From Escherichia phage vB_EcoS-EE09: a stretch of DNA of 44,198 nucleotides. Positions 4,969 to 44,196 of the stretch are shown here, in pieces; the first letter of the stretch is position 1, and every line of letters starts with the position of its first letter. The notes beneath the pieces were generated by a model that did not search any database, was not told the DNA's origin, and worked only from the letters and a program-made list of their open reading frames with translations. The position numbers were made by a program, and so were the translations under genes. The stretch lies in the sequence record OR756193.1. The stretch is one strand, 5' to 3'.

Positions 4969-4978
4969 ATTGGTTGCA
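4969..4978. promoter_or_regulatory. ATTGGTTGCA motif in the divergent region between tail fibre and lipoprotein genes
   Basis: Exact 10-mer shared with 20819, 20832, 44170, 44187 and, in reverse, 1893, 31484, 31515, 34812. Confidence 0.5.
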
Positions 4979-11050: not shown

Positions 11051-11839
11051 CTACCCCTTAATTAATCTGGACCCAGGAAAGCCGCCGAAGTCCAGCACCG
11101 CCGCTTTCGGGTCCGCAAGCCCTTGCCCAAATCGAAGATAACAGTCTGACAAACAGCCGCCGCATCGGTCCATGTTCATCGCGATGACTTCATTACCTCG
11201 CTCGTCGTAATACTTGATACCAGGCTTCGCAAGGTTCCAGGTGCACCCGTCCCCGCTGGCGTACTTCCCGTTGAGCGCCCACTCGCACATATTCATGATT
11301 TGGCGACGGGGAACGACCTGCCCTTCCATATCCGCAGGCGAGGATAGCGCGAAAGTGATCTGCTTGCCCGGATTGCGCCCGACCTGTGAGTCGATGTAAT
11401 ACTCCTGGACACGTTTTTGCGTCGGGTCCGGGTCCGACCCGTTATCCAGGAACTTCGCGAACGTGTCGATTATTTCAACCTTCGCTCCCAGTAGCTGGTC
11501 GTGATTCAATGATAGCCGGGTGATTATGCCGCCAATATCGACGATTGTTAGTTGCGGTTCTGCCGCCGTCGATGTGGAGAAGTTAAGGCCGGACAAATCG
11601 AAGGGCCAAAATTCGAACTCCTGCCCGCCGAAGAAGATGGATTTTGGCTTCAGCTTATCCTCGTCACCCCCAGCGGCAGCAATATCCTCCGCAGTGTGCG
11701 GGATAAAGCAGTAATGAAAATAGTGATGGCCCGCGCCGATCGCGCCGTCTCCTGGTTCCACGTCCTGAGCGTCAATGTGAATCAGGCGAACGCGGCCCGA
11801 TGGGTCGAAGCGTGTCGCCTCGCGATATAGTTTATTCAT
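11051..11839 (-). CDS. minor tail protein, lambda L-like
   Basis: Position and size (262 aa) between M-like and K-like genes; several Cys near the C-terminus. Confidence 0.7.
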   Translation of the reverse strand: MNKLYREATRFDPSGRVRLIHIDAQDVEPGDGAIGAGHHYFHYCFIPHTAEDIAAAGGDEDKLKPKSIFFGGQEFEFWPFDLSGLNFSTSTAAEPQLTIVDIGGIITRLSLNHDQLLGAKVEIIDTFAKFLDNGSDPDPTQKRVQEYYIDSQVGRNPGKQITFALSSPADMEGQVVPRRQIMNMCEWALNGKYASGDGCTWNLAKPGIKYYDERGNEVIAMNMDRCGGCLSDCYLRFGQGLADPKAAVLDFGGFPGSRLIKG

Positions 11840-15036: not shown

Positions 15037-15094
15037 TATGCAGTCCCCTTTTTTATGCAGTTGCCGGTTGACATTGTATCAGCGAATTTAAAAC

Positions 15095-15420
15095 AAACCT
15101 TATTCAGTCTCAGACGAGGGGGGCCGTTGACCCCCGTCTAGTCTGAAAGACTGGAGTTTGTCCCGCCTGTCCCGATCGGCTGAAAACCGCGGCAGCACTG
15201 GCGGGGACGGGGTGCTGTCCCGCTTTGTCCCGCCCCTGGTCTGTCCCGCTTTCTGTCCCGTTTGGTTTATGCAGATTTCGTGCATAGGTATGCACACTTA
15301 GAGGGTGGGACAAAGCGGGACGTCCCGCCTGTCCCGCTTTGGGTTTATGCAGTGGGAGTGAGTAGATATGCAGTTTTACAGAGGCGGGACAAAACGGGAC
15401 GTCCCGCCTGTCCCGCTTCA
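15095..15420. repeat. non-coding structured element: hairpin plus arrays of GTCCCGC direct and inverted repeats
   Basis: Hairpin AGACGAGGGGGG-ccgttga-CCCCCGTCT, then at least eight GTCCCGC units (for example GGGACAAAGCGGGACGTCCCGCCTGTCCCGC) and recurring TTTATGCA; a diverged second copy lies at about 31670-31800. Confidence 0.7.
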
Positions 15421-16097
15421 TTATGCGGGGTTCTGCTGCGCCATCTCATCAAGCGCGATTCGCTCCATTAGCTTGATATCTTTAAACGCGCGCTGCTCGT
15501 TTTCGATACCGTGCATCTTAAATAACCACTCCAGCACGCCGTAGTCGATGCCGTATGCGCCACCAAAACCGGTGCGCCATTGCGTGGAACAATCTGTGAA
15601 GACTGCGACTACCTTCGCGTTGTCGGGCCATAGCGCAACAGGCGGACAAACATCTTCGGGGGCCGCACCCCATAAACTTGCGGCTAAATCTTCGGAGGGT
15701 GGCGGCGGGCCATAAAAGCGTCGCGCCGCCTCAATTAGTTTTTTTCACGCAACCCCATCAGTTCGAGATAGTACGACGTGTGGAACACACCGAACGCGCG
15801 TGGATAGTTGACCACCAGGCGGCGGACGTTCTCCGCGTTAAATTCGTCCGGCAGATTCCAGCCTTCTGCGACGTGCATGATGGCCTCGACCATAACGTTA
15901 AAGCCGTCCGGGTCATTGTCGTCATATTCCGACAACTTGCGCTCCGTGTCCTGCATGGTCTGCGAAAATTCGTCGATAGGGCGGTGGCGTACTGTAAACG
16001 TCATTTTGCCCGGTTCGTTTTCGCCTGGGCGCGGGATCTCAATCGGCAGCTTAAAGGTAGGCTTAGGGTCAAGTGTGAAAAGTGGTGCTTTAGCCAT
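15421..16097 (-). CDS. tail assembly chaperone GT fusion, made by programmed -1 ribosomal frameshift
   Basis: G frame ends ...CGT GAA AAA AAC TAA; the slippery heptamer A-AAA-AAC (plus-strand T7 run at 15739-15745) opens a -1 frame that stays open for about 105 codons to TAA at 15421-15423 and has no start codon of its own near its 5' end. Confidence 0.7.
15735..16097 (-). CDS. tail assembly chaperone, lambda G-like (120 aa)
   Basis: ORF track trimmed to the ATG with RBS GGAGA 8 nt upstream; sits between major tail and tape measure genes. Confidence 0.75.
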   Translation of the reverse strand: MAKAPLFTLDPKPTFKLPIEIPRPGENEPGKMTFTVRHRPIDEFSQTMQDTERKLSEYDDNDPDGFNVMVEAIMHVAEGWNLPDEFNAENVRRLVVNYPRAFGVFHTSYYLELMGLREKN

Positions 16098-20805: not shown

Positions 20806-20841
20806 TTGCAATCCGCGTATTGGTTGCATATATTGGTTGCA
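20806..20841 (+). promoter_or_regulatory. candidate sigma70-type promoter with tandem ATTGGTTGCA motifs
   Basis: -35-like TTGCAA, 17-nt spacer containing ATTGGTTGCA, -10-like TATATT, then a second ATTGGTTGCA; 17-nt identity ATTGGTTGCACACCAAC with the reverse-strand motif upstream of the gene starting at 31460. Confidence 0.45.
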
Positions 20842-24695: not shown

Positions 24696-26081
24696 TTAGT
24701 AGAAGTCTACAGTTGGAACAACGGCGATCGGACGAATCACTGGGAACAGGTGCGCAATTGGATAGCCCGCGGCATCGTTCATGTGGTCCACCCCAGCGGT
24801 TTTATCCGGCTCGCCTTTCTTCAGGTCGTAAACCTGCTGTTCCAGACATTTCGCTAGTGTAGGGCATTTATCCAGGTTGACAAAATACTGGCGCACGCCC
24901 TTCGAGTTGCACATCATCGTATTCATCGCGATCAATCGGTCTTTCACAGGCGGGTTAACGCTGTCGTACTCCACCTCGAAGCCTGCGTCTTCCAGTTGCG
25001 CGATATCTGACGACGATGCGTTGACAGTCTTGCGGGACTTGCCGCTGCTATCCGGGTAAACGACGACCCGACCGGCAGCACAATGATCGGGGTAGCGCTC
25101 CTCGATCGCCTCAATCATAGCCGGGGTGTCAAACAGATCCACAAATTCATCCACTGCGTGTATCTCGTCGCGGAACTCCTTGTTTTCGGTGGTACGCTGC
25201 CGTCTGACGTACACGACCGCCGCCATTTTCGTGACGTTAAAGTCCATACCGATAATCAGCGTGTCTTCCGGTTGTACTTCTTCGGTGCTGGCGTTCTCCT
25301 CGCGATTAAACATCTTGTACACCGCGCCCGACGTAAGGTTAACAAATAGGCCGTTCAGGTACGCGTCGATCAGGTTAGCCGGGTACTGACTGCGCAGCGT
25401 GTCGATAAAGTCTGCCGGTAAATGGTGGTTGTCGGTGGTCTTCGCCCGGATCAAACGTTTCTGGCTATCCTTCTCCACCTCGAAAATTTGATACATTGCC
25501 CGGAAGCCTTCCGGCGTGGATACGATGACAAACTGACGGACCACGCCCGCACGCAGACGACCTAGCAATTTGTGGTATGCCGCCATTGCGACGTCTTGCT
25601 TCGTGGTGTCGAACTCATCGGCAACAATCCACGCGGCGTTAACCCCGATCAGGCGGGTATAGTTCTCCATCGACTCACAGATAACGCGAGTCCATTTGCC
25701 TTTCACCAGAACGCTATAGATCTTGTCCTGCTTGTTGAACTTCCACCGGAAGCCAGCCTCGTCGAAAGCCTTTTCCAATTCCGGGTACATGATCTTAACC
25801 AGGAGTGGAATAGTCGGCTCTGTAACGATGCCATCATGACCAGGGTTCAGGGTTAAAAGCTGGATTACCTTACGGGCTGCGACCCATGACTTGCCGCCGC
25901 CGAAGCCAGAGCACAGGCCGAGGATTTTAGTCTTCGTGTCCCGCAGTAGTTCAACCTGGTGCGGTAGGCAATCAGGCTGGTAAAGACGCACCGCCTGCGC
26001 AACGCGTGTCGGGCGTGGTGGTCTGTTGCGCTTTGCGATCGCGCGTTCCAGTGCGCGGTGTTCTGCCGCATAGTTACGCAT
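24696..26081 (-). CDS. terminase large subunit (461 aa)
   Basis: Walker A-like GFGGGKSW near the N-terminus with acidic motifs downstream; start overlaps the small subunit stop (TAATG). Confidence 0.85.
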   Translation of the reverse strand: MRNYAAEHRALERAIAKRNRPPRPTRVAQAVRLYQPDCLPHQVELLRDTKTKILGLCSGFGGGKSWVAARKVIQLLTLNPGHDGIVTEPTIPLLVKIMYPELEKAFDEAGFRWKFNKQDKIYSVLVKGKWTRVICESMENYTRLIGVNAAWIVADEFDTTKQDVAMAAYHKLLGRLRAGVVRQFVIVSTPEGFRAMYQIFEVEKDSQKRLIRAKTTDNHHLPADFIDTLRSQYPANLIDAYLNGLFVNLTSGAVYKMFNREENASTEEVQPEDTLIIGMDFNVTKMAAVVYVRRQRTTENKEFRDEIHAVDEFVDLFDTPAMIEAIEERYPDHCAAGRVVVYPDSSGKSRKTVNASSSDIAQLEDAGFEVEYDSVNPPVKDRLIAMNTMMCNSKGVRQYFVNLDKCPTLAKCLEQQVYDLKKGEPDKTAGVDHMNDAAGYPIAHLFPVIRPIAVVPTVDFY

Positions 26082-26632
26082 TATTCGCCCTGGCCTTTGC
26101 CGGTAGGTTCCACAACGACGTCGCCGTTATCATCTTCGTCGTCATCCAGCGGAGCATCGTCGCGGACGCCGTGGTTGGCTTTAAGCAGGAACGTAGCGAA
26201 GCCCGCCGCGATGGTAACGCCGCCCGCTTCCATCAGGAAAGTTTTCTGCAACTCCATAGCGTCCGCCATCGCCTCGGCGAACTCCTCATGCGCACGCGCC
26301 CATCGATACAGGCAAGCTACGCCCACGCCGATTTCCGCGGCAAATCGACCGAAGGTTGGCATTTTGTTGCGAGGGATTACCTGCGCAGCGCCCTTGTCGG
26401 AGTAGTTGACCTGCCAGGCGTCGGCGTCGGCAAAATAGCGACGAAGCTGGTCGCAGTAAACAGATCGGTAGTCGGTAGGGCGTCCGCATTTGCCGCCTTT
26501 ACGGCGCTTGCCGTATTCGATCTCGGGTCCGAGATTGGTATGTTCGGTTTGCTCGCCTGGTTTACGGCGCGGGGTTACTGCTACTCGTCCGTCCAGTTTG
26601 GCGCGTCGGCCCTTAACTTTGATTTCTGCCAT
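26081..26632 (-). CDS. putative terminase small subunit (183 aa)
   Basis: ORF track trimmed to the internal ATG (MAEIKVKGRR...); translationally coupled to the large subunit; basic N-terminus. Confidence 0.55.
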   Translation of the reverse strand: MAEIKVKGRRAKLDGRVAVTPRRKPGEQTEHTNLGPEIEYGKRRKGGKCGRPTDYRSVYCDQLRRYFADADAWQVNYSDKGAAQVIPRNKMPTFGRFAAEIGVGVACLYRWARAHEEFAEAMADAMELQKTFLMEAGGVTIAAGFATFLLKANHGVRDDAPLDDDEDDNGDVVVEPTGKGQGE

Positions 26633-26762
26633 GATATAAGCCCTTTTGTGCATATGCGCCGACCATCGGCAACATAGGAGACAGCCCTGCCATCTAAGGG
26701 GGATTATAACAGGCACAAAAAAGCCCACCAAATCGGCAGGCTGGGAGGCTTACGGGTTGCCG

Positions 26763-31460: not shown

Positions 31461-31479
31461 TTTGTTTGGTCCTCTCGTT

Positions 31480-31530
31480 GGTGTGCAACCAATCTAGCAG
31501 GGTGCCAGGCTGAATGCAACCAATATTAAT
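31480..31530 (-). promoter_or_regulatory. promoter-like region with two ATTGGTTGCA motifs (reverse strand)
   Basis: Two exact copies about 31 bp apart, 25-55 bp upstream of the start at 31460; the proximal copy extends to ATTGGTTGCACACCAAC, identical to the motif at 20832. Confidence 0.45.
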
Positions 31531-31669
31531 CATGCGTATGAAAAAGTTGATCGCTATCTGCTGTGGCTGCAAACTGCATTTTTCACTCAGCATAATACAA
31601 CCCGCATTGGTTGCCTAGTTCATCCGCGACCGCACTTCGCATCATGCTGCCGTGTATTTTGCAATCCCC

Positions 31670-31800
31670 GGATTTTATTCAGTCTCAGACGAGGGGGGCC
31701 GTTGACCCCCGTCTAGTCTGAAAGACTGGGGTGCTGTCCCGCTTTGTCCCGCCTAGTGTTTGTCCCGCTTTTTGTCCCGTTTGGTTTATGCAATAAAACT
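31670..31800. repeat. second copy of the hairpin plus GTCCCGC-array element
   Basis: TTATTCAGTCTCAGACGAGGGGGGCCGTTGACCCCCGTCTAGTCTGAAAGACTGG...GTCCCGCTTTGTCCCGCC...GTTTGGTTTATGCA matches the copy at about 15095-15285 apart from a roughly 50-bp internal deletion and a few substitutions. Confidence 0.7.
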
Positions 31801-31829
31801 GCATAACTATTCATCTCATCTACACTACA

Positions 31830-31930
31830 CGGCAACCAATACGACCAGATAAAAACACGCAAAATGGCAACCAATACGCGCACAAATTAATCGTCTAGCG
31901 ATATGGGAATTCCCATATCGGCAACCAATG
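31830..31930. repeat. three iteron-like GGCAACCAAT(A/G)CG repeats plus a 22-bp perfect palindrome
   Basis: Direct repeats cGGCAACCAATACGa, tGGCAACCAATACGc, cGGCAACCAATGCGc; palindrome CGATATGGGAATTCCCATATCG at about 31899-31920; AT-rich flank; directly 3' of the primase-helicase gene. Confidence 0.6.
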
Positions 31931-31940
31931 CGCGCAAAAT

Positions 31941-34282
31941 TTAATCTTTCAGGTCATCATCGGTCGCCGAAAGCGTGATGGGTATATTTGTTTTGATGAC
32001 GATATTCGACGACCCATAGATGGCCCCGGTGTGCGGATCTGTATAAAAACCTAGCACGCCGCGATCCACCATATCGTCTATTGCCTTCGTCGATGTGCCA
32101 CCTTTTGCCAATCCCGCCTGGCGGACGATTGCCGATTTACTGAATCCGGTATGGTCCGGGTTATCTTCCATCAGTTTTTCCAGTGCCGCATAAAGCACTT
32201 TCTCTTTTTCGTTGCGCGGCCCCGCGGCATTTTCTTCCTTAACTGCGGCTTTGCCAGCGGCCTTTGCCTGCTCAATAGCGAACGGTGCCAGGGCGACCGG
32301 TACGAGATACAGAGTCTCGTCGCGTGGCGTGGACGCGATCGGCTTGACGTCCCAACCGGCAACCACATCGCCGAAGTCAGGCCCGGTGCTGGTGGACTGG
32401 TGCGATTCGAACGCCTCGGACTTGCGGAGATCCACCTTAACCTTGCACTTGAGCAGGACGAATCCGCGCGGCGCTTGCTTGATGCCGTTACGTGCCTTTT
32501 CGTGATACAGGTTCAATTGGCCTGGTTGATTGTCGTCCGGTTGCTCCAGGAAGAACGCAGAATCAACAGCACCATGCAGCGCGCCGGACCCGCGTGGGGA
32601 TCTGCTGCCGTTTGCACCCTTCGCCGGGTGGTGGATGACGCCCGCACTGCCGCCTGTATTTTCCGCGATGGCCTTCAGCGCCTTGACCACTTCGCCCATA
32701 TCGCTGGCGTTGTTCTCGTCGAACGGTTTAGCATCGGCGGACCGCAGCGCAACAGTCTGGTTGAGTGAGTCGAACGCCACCAGGCCAACCGGTTCGCCGT
32801 TAGCGGTGCGGTTGATAAAGCTGATAACTTCACGCAAGCCGGATTTGCTGGTGATATCCCAGCCGCGAGATTGCAGGTCGATAATGTGCAGCTTGTCCAG
32901 GTCGTGCTCATATTTGATCTGCAATGCTTCCTTACGCTGGTTGGAGGCTTCGCCACCTTCCGCGTCGAAATAGAAGCAATGAGACTGGACGACCTTCGCA
33001 CCACCGAACGGGATCCCCGCGGCAACCGCACCCATTTGGCCCAGCACGTAGAACGATTTACCGATGTTCGATTCGCCAGCCATATACCAGGTCGATTTGA
33101 AGTTGACCAGGCCTTCTATGATCGGGTCGTGCTTACTGAACAGTGCGACCGGTTCGTTATCCAGGTCAGCGTCGGTACATACGCCGTACTCGTCGCCGTC
33201 TCCGACCGCATCAACGATATGCGCATAGCACGATTCCACTTCCTCGTCGTCCAGTCCTGGGAGGATGGCGGCGATTTGCTTACGTGACATGTTGTGCGGT
33301 TCGACGTTCAGGTGGTCCGGGATCCCGATAAGACGTAGCGCCAGGTGCTGGTGTCTGTTCAGTTCCGAGCAACACTCGTTGCCGGTGTGCATACACTTGA
33401 AACGGATCTCGCCATCCTTAACCATGATAGCGGTGGACCCTTCGCCGCTGTGCAGGTGTTCGTTCGGGCATGGCACTTCATAACCACGACCGGACGACAG
33501 CGGTTCGAATCCTGCCTGGAAGCACCAGTCCAGAATTCCGTCCGTTACGCCAGCGTCGCCCTGGGTCAGTTCGCGGCGCACTTCCTCTTTTTCCACTCCC
33601 CGCTTATCAGCCAGGCGGAGCAGACGACGGACGCGGGCGCGCTTGCCATAGTGGCACTTAATAACAGACTGCTGGTGTGGCAGGTACATCAGGCGGTTTG
33701 TGTCTTTCGTGCAGTCGTCGAAGTCCACATCGGACAAACCAAGTTGGTGTAATAGCGCATACTGGACGCGGCCCAGGTCTTCCGCCGGTACAGGCTTGTC
33801 GGTCAACACCAGGAAACGGGCGCAACGCGTGGCGCATACTGGACGCGGCCCAGGTCTTCCGCCGGTACAGGCTTGTCGGTCAACACCAGGAAACGGGCGC
33901 AACGCGTGCCGCCTTTCAGCGGGTGGCGGTCGCCGGTTGTGGTGTGAAATACGTGTTCCAGCCCCGCGTCAATGAACGCCTTACGGCAGCGGCGTAGGGT
34001 GCGGGTGTCGGTACGGTCGATATCAAAGAACAGGATCGAGCGGTCCACCGCACTGGTCTTACGACGCAATCCGTCACTGGTATACGCCACGATGCCATCG
34101 GCCTTACGCTTGCGGCGCGCATACTCGGCTTTATCTTCCGTCTTATTGATATGCACCGAGGAGATTTCTTTCGCATCATTGATAAATTCGAAAAATTCAT
34201 CGGTGGTCATCTGGAAGTTTTCCGCCCTGGCTTTTTCGCCTTTTTTAGCGGGTCTTGTTACAGCGAATTTAATTAAGCTCAT
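31941..34282 (-). pseudogene. DNA primase-helicase (AEP/PrimPol-like N-domain plus P-loop NTPase), frame broken by a 77-bp tandem duplication
   Basis: N-terminal ORF (33803-34282) has the AEP motif LFFDIDR and a conserved His; the C-terminal ORF (31941-33902) has a Cys/His cluster and Walker A GESNIGKS; both contain TRCARFLVLTDKPVPAEDLGRVQYA; removing one 77-bp copy gives a single 2265-nt (754-codon) frame. Confidence 0.7.
33755..33908. repeat. perfect 77-bp tandem direct duplication (two copies)
   Basis: 33755-33831 is identical to 33832-33908 (GCGCATACTGGACGCGGCCCAGGTCTTCCGCCGGTACAGGCTTGTCGGTCAACACCAGGAAACGGGCGCAACGCGTG). Confidence 0.9.
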
Positions 34283-34292
34283 TGCCGTGGCC

Positions 34293-34622
34293 TTACTTAG
34301 AAGTTTTATTATTGCGTACCCAGGAGCGCACTGTGCTCTGATTAATTCCGGTCAACTCGGCAATCATCGCCCAGGATTTGCCCTCGGCGCGCAAACGGAT
34401 AACCTGTTTTTTGTATTCTTCCATTTCTTCATTGTGCTTTTGCAGCTTGCTTGCTGCAGTACCGTTGAGTAATTCCAGCTTCGCGCGCAATTCTTTTTCG
34501 GTAAGTCGCAGACGTTCGATTTCAAATAGCACCGCACCCACGGCATCGGTATACGCCCATGACCGGCTTGTTTCACTGCTAACAGTCTTCGTTAACATTT
34601 CGATTGCGTCGTTTACATTCAT
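34293..34622 (-). CDS. small HTH DNA-binding protein (109 aa), putative regulator
   Basis: Coiled-coil-like N-terminus and C-terminal helix-turn-helix-like KSWAMIAELTGINQSTVRSWV; first gene of the leftward unit. Confidence 0.55.
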   Translation of the reverse strand: MNVNDAIEMLTKTVSSETSRSWAYTDAVGAVLFEIERLRLTEKELRAKLELLNGTAASKLQKHNEEMEEYKKQVIRLRAEGKSWAMIAELTGINQSTVRSWVRNNKTSK

Positions 34623-34798: not shown

Positions 34799-34828
34799 TT
34801 GACACCCATCCTGCAACCAATCTATTAT
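34799..34828 (+). promoter_or_regulatory. candidate strong rightward sigma70 early promoter
   Basis: Consensus -35 TTGACA, 18-nt spacer containing TGCAACCAAT, -10 TATTAT; about 200 bp upstream of the first rightward gene. Confidence 0.5.
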
Positions 34829-35024
34829 TCACTCCGTCGACAGGATGCAGGACGCAAACTGGAGAGGGGCAACGCAGGGGCCGGATCGAAGTGTCAGGAT
34901 TCCCAACCGTGATTATATAACCTGGTCCACTACCCGAACGGGAGAACGCGCAACCGGGCAATATGTTAAGGCCACCGACGAAGTTAACTGCCGACATCTA
35001 AACTTAACCAATCGGAGATATACC

Positions 35025-35543
35025 ATGTTTGAGCAAATCGTAAACCTGATCACTCGCGGCGTAGTAGCACTGGAAACCATCGCTAAACATTATGAAACCG
35101 TTGGCGCTGCCGTTGGTAAGCAGGAAGACAAGAAGCCGTCTAAGGCCAAAAAAGAAGTTGTCGAAGATGACGACGATGAAGTCGAAGACGAAAAACCGGC
35201 TAAATCTAAAAAAGCCCCGGCGAAAGGTAAATCCAAAAAAGAAGTCGTAGAAGATGACGACGACGAGGATGCCGAAGATGAAAAACCGGCTAAGTCTAAA
35301 AAAGCACCGGCGAAAGGCAAAGGTAAGAAAGATGCCGATCCGCTGGCGGAGATGCGCGACGAAATCAAACAGTATGCCGCGATTATCGCCGGTGGCGATG
35401 ACGACGATGCGAACGACGAATTCGACGACCTGCTGGAATCGTTCGAGATCAAATCAATCGCCAAGCTGGAAGATGACGACGTCGAAGACTTCCACAAAGA
35501 GCTAAAAGAAATCGTCGAAACCTATTTCGAACTGGAAGATTAA
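35025..35543 (+). CDS. highly charged repeat protein (172 aa), first gene of the rightward early operon
   Basis: ORF track trimmed to the ATG with RBS GGAGA 6 nt upstream; two tandem ~29-aa repeats KKEVVEDDDDE..EDEKPAKSKKAPAKGK; strongly acidic C-terminal half. Confidence 0.65.
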   Translation: MFEQIVNLITRGVVALETIAKHYETVGAAVGKQEDKKPSKAKKEVVEDDDDEVEDEKPAKSKKAPAKGKSKKEVVEDDDDEDAEDEKPAKSKKAPAKGKGKKDADPLAEMRDEIKQYAAIIAGGDDDDANDEFDDLLESFEIKSIAKLEDDDVEDFHKELKEIVETYFELED

Positions 35544-37697: not shown

Positions 37698-37787
37698 CCG
37701 CTTAGGCGCAACCAAGTAGATTAGCAACCAAGCCGAACGGGGTGGCTTCCAATAACCCCGATACATGTGAAAATGAGGAATTGGAAA

Positions 37788-38573
37788 ATGGCTAAAGTCA
37801 ACCTGAAAAATGTGCGTGTATGTTTCCTGAAAATTTGGGAACGTGATACCCCTAAACAGGATGGACAAAAACCGGCATACCGTGCCGTGATTCTTCTTGA
37901 TAAAGAAGATCCGCAGGTGGACAAAGTGGAAGCGGCAGCGCGCGCAGTGCTCACCGACAAGCTGAAATCTGAGAAGAATGCCGATAAGTGGATGGACCGC
38001 CACTACGCCCAGGATTCTAAGGAATGCGCAGTTCGTGACGGTGACGAGCGCGACGAAGTAACCGAAGAATTCGAAGGCATGTTGTACATCAACGCTAAAT
38101 CGTTCAAACAGCCAAACATTCAAACGTCACTCGGCGAGAAGCAGACCGAACAGGGTCTGACCGTAGAAGGCGACGAGATCGAAGGCCAGGAGATCTACTC
38201 CGGTTGTTATTGCAACGTGTCCCTTGATATCTGGGCGTGGAACAATACCAACGGCAAGGGACTCGGTGCTGGCTTGCTGGGTTTACGCTTCCGTGATGAC
38301 GGTGAAGCCTTCGGGGGTGGCGGGTCTTCTTGCTCCGATGAAGACCTGGACAACGACGACGAAGACGAAGCACCGCGCAAGTCCAAAAAGTCAAAACGTC
38401 GTGATGACGATGATGAAGATGACAAGCCGCGCAAGTCCAAGAAATCCAAGCGCCGCGATGACGACGACGATGAGGAAGATGAAAAACCTCGCAAACGTCG
38501 TAAGCCACGCGATGACGAAGATGAGGACGACGACGACGAAGACGAAGCGCCACGTAAACGTCGCCGCCGTTAA
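37788..38573 (+). CDS. DUF2815-like putative ssDNA-binding protein with charged repeat tail
   Basis: ORF track trimmed to the ATG with RBS GAGGA 7 nt upstream; MAKVNLKNVRV... N-terminus; C-terminal ~85 aa of tandem PRKSKKSKRRDDDDED-type repeats. Confidence 0.55.
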   Translation: MAKVNLKNVRVCFLKIWERDTPKQDGQKPAYRAVILLDKEDPQVDKVEAAARAVLTDKLKSEKNADKWMDRHYAQDSKECAVRDGDERDEVTEEFEGMLYINAKSFKQPNIQTSLGEKQTEQGLTVEGDEIEGQEIYSGCYCNVSLDIWAWNNTNGKGLGAGLLGLRFRDDGEAFGGGGSSCSDEDLDNDDEDEAPRKSKKSKRRDDDDEDDKPRKSKKSKRRDDDDDEEDEKPRKRRKPRDDEDEDDDDEDEAPRKRRRR

Positions 38574-38802: not shown

Positions 38803-40958
38803 AAGACTTCGAACGTCTGTTTCTCGACACCGAGACATTTAGCGGGGTGGACCTGAAGAAAGTAGGGGCGTACGCCTACGCAGAGCACCCAACCACCGAG
38901 ATTATGATTTGCACCTACGCCATCGACGAAGGCCGCGTGCAGACATGGGATGCCACTGAATCCCCAACAATGCCGCGTGAACTGCGCAAGGCGCTCCGTC
39001 AGGTATCCCGCAAGAAAGCAAAAATCGTGATGGCTAACGGCCTCCTGTTTGACCGCCTGGTTATCCGTGAGAAGTGGGGAATCGACCTGCCGGTAAGCCA
39101 GATCGAAGATACCATGATTATGGCCTTTCGCCACGCGCTGCCGGGTAGTCTCGATATGCAGTGTCAGGTGCTGGGCGTTGACGCAGAGCACGCGAAGGAT
39201 AAGGCCGGCAAGGCGCTGATCAAACGATTCTGTAAGCCTACCCCTAAGACCTACAAAATACGCCGCTACACGCGCGAGACTCACCCTGAAGAATGGGCCA
39301 AATTTCTGCGATATGCCGCTCTTGATATTATCGCGATGCGTGAGGTCTACTGGCGCATACCGGACTGGGGTAATACTCCGAAGGAAGACGAGATACTGCT
39401 TATTGACCAGTTGATCAACGACCGCGGCTTCTATGTGGACGTTGACCTGGCGAACGCCGCGATCAAAGCGGTGCAGGCGCATAAGGAAGAATTGAAGGAG
39501 GAAGCCTGGGAGCGATTTGGCGGTAAGCTGACCGGCAATGACTTCCTGCCAATCCTGCGTGATATCGCCCCAGCGTTCACAATCCACAACGCGCAGAAAT
39601 CCACACTTAACGACCTGCTTGAAGACCCGGACTTCCCCGACGAAGGCAAAGCGCTTATCGAAATGCGCCTCGGTGCGTCATCAACGGCATCGACTAAGTA
39701 CAATCCGCTAGTTAACGGCTTATCCGCAGACGGTCGCCGCCGTGGGTGTCTTCAGTATGGTGGTGCAAAGCGCACGCTGCGCTGGGCCGGTAAAGGCTTC
39801 CAGCCGCAAAACCTGGCACGCGGCGAGTATAGCGACGATCACGAAGGGAAGATTAAGCGCCGCGAAGGCGAGAGCGACGTTGCTTTTTGGGTCCGGTCGC
39901 ACATGCTCACCAACGGCATCAATTCCCTGTTACGCGGGACCGCGCACTGGGCGTATGACATATCTAAGCTAACAGCCTCGACCGTTCGCGGGTGCATTAT
40001 CCCGGCTAAGGGCAAGAAGTTTGTCGTAGCGGACTACTCCAACGTGGAAGGGCGTGGACTTGCCTGGATCGCGGGCGAGAAAACAGCGCTCATGGTGTTT
40101 AAGGCCGGTCGCGATATCTATTGTGAGACTGCCGGTAAGATGTTCGGCCTGGACCCGGACTACATTAAAGCCAACCGCAAGGACTTGCGCCAGATCGGTA
40201 AGGCGTGCGAATTGGGGCTGGGCTATGGTGGCGGCGTCGCGGCGTTCTTGCAGTTCGCTAAAAACCTGGGACTCGACCTTTACACTATGGCGGACGTGAT
40301 GAAAGGCACGTTCCCGGATCACATTTGGGCGGCGGCGAAGCGCGGTTATGAGTACGCCCGCATTAACGAAGCGAAACGCCCACCGAAGCCGGGTAAGAAG
40401 GACGAGCGCCCGACTTACATACTGCCGAAAAACGTATGGCTTACTTGTGACGCGATCAAACGTATGTGGCGTGAGGCTCACCCGAAGACGGTAGCCTTTT
40501 GGGCCGAGCTTGAGGACGCGGTGTTGTGTGCAATCCGCAATCCGGGCAAAGCATACTGGGCTGGTGCGAACGTTCACCCGGACGGTGGCATCGCGCTGTC
40601 TGTCACTACCGAGATCGACGAAGACACCGGCAAGAAGCGCACCAGCACACGCATTAAATATCAGGGCGAGAATCAGACGACGCGCCAGTGGGGCTTCCAG
40701 TATACCTACGGCGGCAAACTGACGGAGAACATCGTACAGGCGTTATGCCGTGATATTCTCGCCTGGTCAATGCCTGGCGTTGAAGCTGCGGGCTATGAAA
40801 TCGTTCTATCGGTGCATGATGAATTGATCACAGAAGTGCCGGACACCGACGACTACACGACCGAGGAGCTTTGCGCGCTGATGTGCGACCTGCCTATTTG
40901 GGCAAAAGGCTTCCCACTTGCCGCGGAAGGCGACATCATGTACAGGTACAGGAAATAA
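38799..40958 (+). CDS. family A DNA polymerase with 3'-5' exonuclease domain (719 aa)
   Basis: Exo I motif LDTETFS near the N-terminus; polymerase motifs R-Q-I-G-K-A-C-E-L-G-L-G-Y-G-G-G (motif B-like) and V-H-D-E-L (motif C). Confidence 0.85.
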   Translation: MKDFERLFLDTETFSGVDLKKVGAYAYAEHPTTEIMICTYAIDEGRVQTWDATESPTMPRELRKALRQVSRKKAKIVMANGLLFDRLVIREKWGIDLPVSQIEDTMIMAFRHALPGSLDMQCQVLGVDAEHAKDKAGKALIKRFCKPTPKTYKIRRYTRETHPEEWAKFLRYAALDIIAMREVYWRIPDWGNTPKEDEILLIDQLINDRGFYVDVDLANAAIKAVQAHKEELKEEAWERFGGKLTGNDFLPILRDIAPAFTIHNAQKSTLNDLLEDPDFPDEGKALIEMRLGASSTASTKYNPLVNGLSADGRRRGCLQYGGAKRTLRWAGKGFQPQNLARGEYSDDHEGKIKRREGESDVAFWVRSHMLTNGINSLLRGTAHWAYDISKLTASTVRGCIIPAKGKKFVVADYSNVEGRGLAWIAGEKTALMVFKAGRDIYCETAGKMFGLDPDYIKANRKDLRQIGKACELGLGYGGGVAAFLQFAKNLGLDLYTMADVMKGTFPDHIWAAAKRGYEYARINEAKRPPKPGKKDERPTYILPKNVWLTCDAIKRMWREAHPKTVAFWAELEDAVLCAIRNPGKAYWAGANVHPDGGIALSVTTEIDEDTGKKRTSTRIKYQGENQTTRQWGFQYTYGGKLTENIVQALCRDILAWSMPGVEAAGYEIVLSVHDELITEVPDTDDYTTEELCALMCDLPIWAKGFPLAAEGDIMYRYRK

Positions 40959-41236
40959 TGACACCAGAAGGCAAGATTCAAAGTCACCTGATGAGACGGG
41001 TGAAAGATGTTGGCGGATTCTGCCGAAAACTGGCATGGGAGGGGCGCGCAGGTGCGCCCGACCTGATTATTATCATCAACGGCAAAATAGTGTTCGTCGA
41101 AGTGAAGCGCCCCGGAGGAAAACCGAAGCCGCACCAGGTACGTGAACATGAGCGAATGGCCCGCCGCGGTGCGGACGTTCGTGTTATCGACAACATAGCC
41201 GACTGCGATTTATTGGTTGCTGAATTGGTCGCGTAG
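40958..41236 (+). CDS. VRR-NUC domain nuclease (92 aa)
   Basis: ORF track trimmed to the ATG overlapping the polymerase stop (TAATG); PD-(D/E)xK core DLIIIINGKIVFVEVK. Confidence 0.6.
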   Translation: MTPEGKIQSHLMRRVKDVGGFCRKLAWEGRAGAPDLIIIINGKIVFVEVKRPGGKPKPHQVREHERMARRGADVRVIDNIADCDLLVAELVA

Positions 41237-44169: not shown

Positions 44170-44196
44170 ATTGGTTGCATAATTAGATTGGTTGCA
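44170..44196 (+). promoter_or_regulatory. tandem ATTGGTTGCA motifs at the right edge of the window
   Basis: Two exact copies 17 bp apart immediately after the stop of the last gene, same tandem arrangement as at 20819-20841. Confidence 0.5.

Follow-up and report, generated by a model that had tools for sequence, protein, structure and literature searches.

Paired repeat and hairpin modules in Dhillonvirus genomes: candidate iterons of a putative self-loading helicase-primase

The alpha protein of satellite phage P4 unites primase and helicase functions and binds its origin through a C-terminal winged helix. Its sites, ori and crr, consist of octamer repeats in direct and inverted orientation and form two separate regions 4.5 kb apart, one of them beside the alpha gene; both are cis-acting, and neither is known to carry a conserved hairpin of the kind described below. 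In Bacillus phage SPP1, oriL and oriR are related repeat regions located far apart, in the replication and the late region, and both are bound by G38P, an initiator separate from the helicase-primase. The oriV of RSF1010 is served by the helicase RepA and the primase RepB' and contains iterons followed by GC-rich and AT-rich segments as well as the ssiA/ssiB hairpins for single-strand initiation, which form an inverted pair. Here, the iterons are read by a separate protein, RepC.

By analogy, the closest documented system to the locus described here is Rep/Pri-Rep of the SaPIs. The C-terminal winged helix of these proteins reads 6–12 penta- or hexanucleotide iterons immediately downstream of the rep ORF, which occur in both orientations around an AT-rich stretch and whose specificity varies between lineages (PMC9371898).

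Here, a pair of repeat modules is described in Escherichia phage vB_EcoS-EE09 (OR756193.1); the whole stretch analysed, 44,198 nucleotides, is called the window and represents a near-complete Dhillonvirus (HK578/SO-1-like) coliphage genome. Similar to SaPI Rep/ori, a primase-helicase with a predicted C-terminal winged helix is followed just past its own ORF by short repeats with an AT-rich neighbour. In contrast to SaPI, the helicase is of the RepA/AAA_25 (RecA-like) type and not SF3/MCM-like, the host element is a lytic siphophage, the module contains a long GC-rich hairpin, a second cluster is present 16.5 kb away in the tail gene block, and the binding is a candidate one. Since the helicase families differ, the likeness to SaPI and P4 is a working resemblance and not homology; no sequence relationship of the helicase-primase to SF3/MCM-like Rep or P4 alpha was detected, and the protein is an analogue of these rather than a homologue. 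For two separated clusters, P4 ori and crr provide a precedent, although the Dhillonvirus clusters are much further apart and carry a hairpin. SPP1 likewise has two distant, related repeat regions in a siphophage genome, one in the replication and one in the late region, but differs in the type of repeat and in its separate initiator. RSF1010 shares the RepA-type helicase, iterons, GC-rich and AT-rich segments and conserved hairpins, whereas the iteron reader proposed for the phage is the helicase-primase itself and its hairpins are not an inverted pair.

The 2-kb stretch around copy B is 91–96% identical to many Escherichia phages, with JohannBuxtorf_Bas84 as the best match. Both Bas84 and JL1 are colinear with the window. 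The genes flanking both copies are located on the minus strand. Copy B directly follows the helicase-primase gene, within region B (31461–31940), a 480-bp gap that begins 1 bp past the helicase-primase stop (31941) and reaches the next ORF (start 31460). The gap that contains copy A, region A (15037–15421), separates the tail chaperone from the tape-measure gene and measures roughly 385 bp. Non-coding DNA before the tape-measure gene is an unusual location in a siphophage. The features are listed in Table 1.

Table 1. Coordinates of the module copies and neighbouring features in the window.
Feature	Position	Strand	Evidence or remark
Copy B of the shared module	31675–31815	- (surrounding genes on -)	Alignment, repeat finder; conserved in relatives
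Hairpin B: long imperfect three-helix inverted repeat, variable loop (CCGTTGA here)	31678–31730		Folding, loop variants among relatives
Deletion junction: one remaining 16-nt direct repeat GGGGTGCTGTCCCGCT	31728–31743		Present twice in relatives, at a distance of 56 nt
Four direct GTCCCG(C) motifs, 10–16 bp start to start	31736–31779		Relatives: 7, one inverted
AT-rich dyad TTATGCA-N7-TGCATAA	31786–31806		Within block TGAATAGTTATGCAG, kept even in distant relatives
Three TTGGTTGCC boxes (earlier taken as iterons) and palindrome GATATGGGAATTCCCATATC (31900–31919)	31832–31928		Between helicase-primase stop and copy B
Three more TTGGTTGC boxes, opposite side of copy B	31485–31614
Candidate sigma-70 promoter TTGCAT-N17-TAGATT	31491–31519	-	Downstream end of region B; below scan threshold
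Helicase-primase gene, appears as two ORFs	31941–34282	-	77-bp tandem duplication at 33755–33908
Coding region of predicted winged-helix core of helicase-primase C-terminus; candidate GTCCCGC reader	32004–32213	-
Copy A of the shared module	15100–15297	-	Between tail chaperone GT stop (~15422) and tape-measure start (15036)
Hairpin A, identical to hairpin B	15103–15155
GTCCCG array A: 2 direct, 1 inverted variant (GGGGAC, 15203–15208), then 4 direct	15160–15260
Dyad A TTATGCA-N7-TGCATAg	15267–15287
Two additional palindromic motif quartets GGGACAAAGCGGGAC/GTCCCGCCTGTCCCGC (15304–15339, 15383–15418)	15304–15418		Region A only; repeat finder
Candidate extended -10 element TGATACAAT	15073–15081	-	Between hairpin A and tape-measure gene; read by eye, uncalled by consensus scan

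Pairwise alignment and a repeat finder revealed that 31675–31815 repeats 15100–15297 in direct orientation. The sequence-only reading had placed a direct second copy of a hairpin plus GTCCCGC element at 31670–31800, and its coordinates and orientation are correct. The similarity extends well beyond the short hairpin: within the hairpin half (31675–31732 versus 15100–15157) 57 of 58 positions match, the half carrying four GTCCCG motifs aligns as well (31728–31792 versus 15209–15273, 91% identity), and a weaker similarity runs on to about 15297/31815, including the common dyad TTATGCA-N7-TGCATA. In the 44-kb window, the repeat finder detected no further dispersed repeat of comparable length and identity. 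GTCCCGC is present 19 times in the window in comparison to 9.0 expected occurrences, a number reached in none of 100 shuffles, and 13 of the 19 fall within regions A and B; TTATGCA is present 12 times (4.7 expected), half of these within the two regions. Counted by region, A contains 13 motifs and B four, with a spacing of about 9–16 bp inside the runs. In the direction of transcription, each copy displays the AT-rich dyad, four direct GGGAC motifs, in full-length copies one inverted and two further direct motifs, and the three-helix hairpin; the palindromic quartets of region A lie upstream of this common module.

Within region A, the direct and inverted GTCCCG runs between 15216 and 15416 form long imperfect palindromes and give sub-threshold Rfam matches to miRNA precursors (E = 0.014–0.44). 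These are chance hairpin matches, yet they indicate a strong dyad symmetry there. Further upstream on the minus strand, at about 15735–15750, an A run GTGAAAAAAACTAA ends the tail chaperone ORF and is followed by an overlapping ORF to about 15422, which is the usual layout of a G/GT programmed frameshift.

In the window, copy A comprises 169 nt and copy B only 113 nt, because B has lost the 56-nt segment flanked by the 16-nt direct repeats GGGGTGCTGTCCCGCT. The earlier description as a diverged copy with an internal deletion of roughly 50 bp thus fits this sequence, but the deletion is specific to the strain and no general trait. Both copies are 169–170 nt long in 14 other Dhillonvirus genomes, and B is not a decayed copy of A. 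The long form of B is also kept in the best 12 matching public records listed, and the 56-nt loss is peculiar to this window among the genomes examined. In the record of phage CS16, a terminator is annotated in the middle segment of region B, where it covers the inverted motifs GCGGGAC..GTCCCGC (L089 737–764; LR999870 32186–32213); this segment is exactly the part deleted in the window.

The module is present in all 158 Dhillonvirus records of the phage collection, in nearly all of them in two places. Furthermore, the record of Sodalis phage SO-1 (NC_013600) already contains two repeat_region entries, region A (11214–11597) and region B (40178–40657), annotated as mutually similar. These entries correspond in identity and position to the two elements of the window, and direct, inverted and palindromic repeats are listed for them; the record words their function as a possible one and names no binding protein, motif turnover or hairpin co-variation. 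Therefore, the repeat pair itself is not new. What is added here is the turnover of the motif, its co-variation with the winged helix predicted for the helicase-primase, and the conservation of the hairpin.

Between genomes, A copies are 92.7% and B copies 93.2% identical, whereas A and B share 87.7% within a genome and 86.7% between genomes (permutation p = 0.004). An A copy is thus closer to the A copies of other phages than to its own B copy, which implies that the duplication is old and that both copies have been maintained separately. The small excess within genomes would suggest a faint signal of gene conversion, that is, a slight homogenisation of A and B; the rare loop variant common to both copies of JL1 is a visible case of it. 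Direct repeats of 113–169 nt, this significant excess and the JL1 loop variants are what could be expected if the pair were a substrate for deletion or rearrangement of the 16.5 kb in between, or a neutral leftover of a duplication. Such an explanation appears very unlikely. The interval carries the lysis, terminase, portal, capsid and tail genes, so that its loss would be lethal, and the deletion proposed by the sequence-only reading is unsupported as a function. Moreover, the length is fixed at 169–170 nt in 14 genomes, identity among A copies and among B copies (about 93%) exceeds that between A and B, and the arrangement with two sites persists in Eiauvirus with another motif.

For Edwardsiella phage eiAU (Eiauvirus), non-coding regions are present at both equivalent positions and share a 52-nt block at 88% identity, and the region before the tape-measure gene finishes in a related hairpin. 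Here (L043 42365–42718), about 1.1 kb separate the chaperone and tape-measure genes; an ORF of 117 aa lies on the reverse strand within the first ~780 nt of this gap, and the repeat module is limited to the last ~330 nt. For phiEap-2 and SE1, with helicase-primases about 43% identical to the Dhillonvirus protein, one such region each is present, always directly after the helicase-primase gene. The same applies to many IMG/VR contigs, for which the C-terminal half of the helicase-primase served as anchor. For the homologue search, a query with the 199-aa C-terminal fragment found nothing, and the 653-aa ORF was used successfully. In Kagunavirus and Jerseyvirus (Bas71, K1ind2, SETP13), no module follows the helicase-primase gene, and an ordinary terminator and a reverse-strand Cro-like gene are found instead. 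Because of this, the module is confined to Dhillon, Eiau and phiEap-2/SE1-like lineages.

In relatives with helicase-primases of about 45–55% identity, the layout after the gene is the same: the block TGAATAGTTATGCAG is followed by motif arrays, first direct and then inverted, and by the long hairpin, and another conserved block and a sigma-70 promoter complete the order. The short motif itself changes from lineage to lineage. It is GCGGGACA in Dhillonvirus and L060, CGGACAA in the phiEap-2 group, TCCGACA in L076/L081/L086, GGGGAGA in the SE1 group, AGGGATA in L084, GGGGATRA in L088, TTGCGAGT in L061–L067 and CGCCCCG in eiAU. A second cluster was also sought for the TTGCGAGT lineage: a scan anchored on the chaperone returned only Dhillon and eiAU contigs, and a pattern scan was too unspecific.

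Across these eight motif classes, the array motif changes together with the last ~115 residues of the helicase-primase. Pairs with different motifs are 96–99% identical over the first ~670 residues and only 38–49% in the C-terminal domain, whereas pairs with the same motif are 78–82% identical over the first ~670 residues and 65–83% in the C-terminal domain. Three independent domain swaps break at the domain boundary. For this C-terminal part, a winged helix is predicted with moderate confidence (mean pLDDT 72). Since the coding segment of the domain and the arrays are physically adjacent, linkage could mimic a functional co-variation. In the whole protein, AAA_25 is the only domain found, with a weak PDB match to RSF1010 RepA; neither its N-terminal nor its C-terminal part matched a Pfam family.

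Just upstream of the helicase-primase, a small HTH protein is encoded in each group, a Cro-like protein of 69–73 aa in the relatives and a protein of 109 aa in the window (34293–34622, minus strand). As a binder of the motif it was rejected: one identical 73-aa protein accompanies CGGACAA, TCCGACA and GGGGAGA, and a protein occurring with three motifs cannot be their reader. Going by these sequence comparisons and the structural model, the motif is tracked by the predicted C-terminal winged helix of the helicase-primase and not by the small HTH protein, and the former is the candidate reader. The 109-aa protein occupies the slot of the Cro-like proteins and therefore is a non-orthologous replacement. 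Annotated as transposase in relatives, it contains a C-terminal HTH (HTH_23/HTH_28) as its sole domain, which also resembles region 4 of sigma-70 (sub-threshold hits to ECF sigma factors). It could read the TTGGTTGC boxes.

In all lineages, the module contains a single long hairpin of two or three helices with roughly 20 or more base pairs and internal loops. Its sequence diverges widely between lineages; within Dhillonvirus the stems are nearly invariant and the loop is variable. Compared to shuffles, the window hairpin scores z = -2.5 (plus strand) and -3.95 (minus strand) when folded as RNA and z = -3.8 as DNA, and for nine tested hairpins z ranges from -2.1 to -5.6. Within the TTGCGAGT lineage, two hairpin variants are distinguished by four compensatory double changes, and all 28 pairs remain intact. 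Judged from these sequences, the pairing of the hairpin is under selection. This is based on folds for each lineage and the one alignment within a lineage; MAFFT and RNAalifold over all lineages missed the hairpin, because the alignment is not structure-aware.

Selected pairing, a long hairpin in every lineage and the orientation of both copies along the genes would also fit an RNA function in the long leftward transcript, as RNase III site, stabiliser of mRNA ends or put-like anti-termination element, with the arrays as a separate feature. By its shape, the hairpin would fit an RNase III site, for which an imperfect duplex of about 20 bp in a transcribed intergenic region is expected. Nevertheless, an RNA role seems improbable. 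G-U pairs are equally rare on both strands (5.8% versus 5.1%) and the strands fold about equally well, so that nothing singles out the transcript strand, and Rfam 15 gave no match at the gathering score, the only hits being the chance-level miRNA-like hairpins in region A. In addition, the hairpin accompanies the DNA arrays throughout. For the CGGACAA and TCCGACA lineages (L040, L074, L076, L080–L083, L086), the loop TCTGTCCGA/TCTGTCGGA holds an inverted copy of the lineage's own array motif. This loop copy and the constant tie to the arrays suggest a role at the DNA level. In L088, the side of the loop contains ATCCCC, the complement of GGGGAT; the Dhillonvirus loops are without such a motif. 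A DNA-level palindrome fits the hairpin at least as well as an RNA structure.

The hairpin may also be regarded as part of a transcription boundary. Here, it would stop or attenuate the upstream transcript, that of the helicase-primase for B and of the major tail and chaperone genes for A, and a protein bound to the arrays would govern the promoter just downstream, thereby setting when or how strongly the lysis and head genes (B) and the tape-measure and distal tail genes (A) are expressed. Both copies are located at borders of gene blocks in the transcribed orientation, and the CS16 annotators placed their terminator inside region B. After hairpin A, TGATACAAT is present in every A copy examined with at most one base different (TGATACAAA in L035). 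The -35 hexamer of the candidate promoter in region B overlaps a TTGGTTGC box, and at the equivalent spot in relatives, stronger sigma-70 promoters (TTGCAA-N17-TAATAT) close the module. However, the T-run that an intrinsic terminator requires after its hairpin is absent on either strand, and terminator scans call nothing at either hairpin. The arrays are located roughly 60–350 bp upstream of the promoters and not over them, the motif co-varies with the C-terminus of the helicase-primase and with neither type of small HTH regulator, and it would be unusual for a replication protein to serve as transcription factor. A boundary function is therefore possible, but rather unlikely.

The neighbouring TTGGTTGC boxes lie genome-wide at promoter-like sites. 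Often paired, they are found at 1901–1913, 4970, 20820–20840, 34813–34820, 37708–37731, 41213 and 44171–44195, in addition to the six in 31485–31928. They provide a TTGCA(a/t) hexamer resembling a -35 element, as in TTGCAA-N16-TAATAC at 4970 and TTGCTG-N17-TATAGT at 41213. The boxes look promoter-associated rather than origin-specific by their sequence context. Thus, the boxes and palindrome that the sequence-only reading described as an iteron and palindrome cluster downstream of the primase gene do adjoin copy B, but the boxes are no local peculiarity. In several relatives (L060, L061, L081, L088, L070, L086, L085), the first TTGGTTGC or ATGTTGGCTG box lies within the last helicase-primase codons in either orientation, encoding ..LVA../..MLA.. 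or ..QPT../..ATN.., just ahead of a conserved acidic tail (DDDLxD). T7 gp4 and gp2.5 have polymerase-binding tails, which this acidic tail recalls.

Paired regulatory or origin sites had been one suggestion for the two copies, and this is the option favoured here, as both copies are conserved in the genus and in a second genus and the motif co-varies with the helicase-primase domain. More precisely, the GTCCCGC arrays would be iterons of a self-loading helicase-primase, a proposal for which we regard the chances as about even. Its predicted C-terminal winged helix would dock on the iterons. Region B, directly downstream of the helicase-primase gene, would be the site of loading at the minimum, and otherwise the ancestral origin of replication. 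It unites direct and inverted arrays of a short motif with an AT-rich dyad and a GC-rich palindrome that is conserved. Region A, which both Dhillonvirus and Eiauvirus have kept, could then be a second origin or a cis-acting partner site. The hairpin may serve, extruded or single-stranded, as a site of entry or priming; a priming role similar to that of RSF1010 ssi is conjecture by analogy. We infer the binding of domain to motif, the start of replication and the roles of hairpin and region A from sequence, structural model and known systems.

Several features are those of an iteron origin: a clustered repeat within the expected size range of 5–8 bp, in direct and inverted orientation, lies in non-coding DNA adjoining a helicase gene, this helicase has a predicted C-terminal winged-helix domain, and repeat and domain change jointly between lineages, a change that linkage confounds. 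Cumulative GC skew has no inflection at region A or B, but it tracks the direction of transcription and is therefore uninformative as origin marker. DnaA boxes TTATNCACA are not enriched in the window (29 with one mismatch allowed versus 25.9 expected), with two in region A and none in region B. Against an origin stands that relatives manage with a single cluster, which leaves the need for region A unexplained. Furthermore, promoter-like sequences closely follow both modules, a position equally suited to a role in transcription, and the conserved hairpin is without counterpart in the SaPI or P4 models. Literature searches covering the repeats, promoters, origins and transcriptomes of Dhillonvirus found no functional data.

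Short phased repeat arrays also resemble recognition sites of terminases, and the copies could be seen as pac-like packaging signals for the small terminase. This is very unlikely, since headful packaging and a circular assembly of the genome are reported for Dhillonviruses (PMC9022532), neither copy lies near the terminase genes (24696–26731) as a cos or pac site should, and the motif follows the helicase-primase and not the terminase.

If the helicase-primase does load at the arrays, a concrete origin and a second site would be at hand for the whole phage group, with the C-terminal winged helix as specificity reader. The at least eight natural pairs of domain and motif would then represent a panel for DNA recognition by self-loading helicases. 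Both Dhillonviruses and the Guernseyvirinae-like phages related to them are frequent among coliphages and Salmonella phages and are used in collections and in therapy work.

A wider and improbable extension is that the helicase-primase at the arrays also switches on or boosts late transcription, and that winged helix and iterons form a cassette determining replicon identity. Each array sits just upstream of a candidate promoter of a late block, so that assembly of the replisome could boost late transcription; the blocks past the candidate promoters comprise lysis, head and terminase genes (B) and tape-measure and distal tail genes (A). T4 couples late gene expression to DNA replication through its sliding clamp, and the proposed coupling would resemble this. 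A cassette with at least eight specificities would mark replicon identity among co-infecting relatives.

Besides the shortened copy B, the window contains a perfect 77-bp tandem duplication inside the helicase-primase gene (33755–33831 = 33832–33908). Neither Bas84 nor JL1 has this duplication, by which the 754-aa gene is broken up into two ORFs (653 and 159 aa). Since 77 is a common k-mer size of assemblers, this duplication is likely a circularisation artefact that survived re-orientation of the contig. Two probable sequence errors or strain-specific lesions are thus flagged, the 56-nt loss in an origin-like region and the duplication breaking the helicase-primase gene. Scans for tRNA and tmRNA found nothing in the window. 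Finally, tandem coding repeats of 90 nt and 54 nt, rich in Asp, Glu and Lys codons, are present at 35148–35327 and 38337–38557; they lie in two plus-strand ORFs (34845–35543 and 37767–38573) encoding acidic/basic low-complexity proteins.
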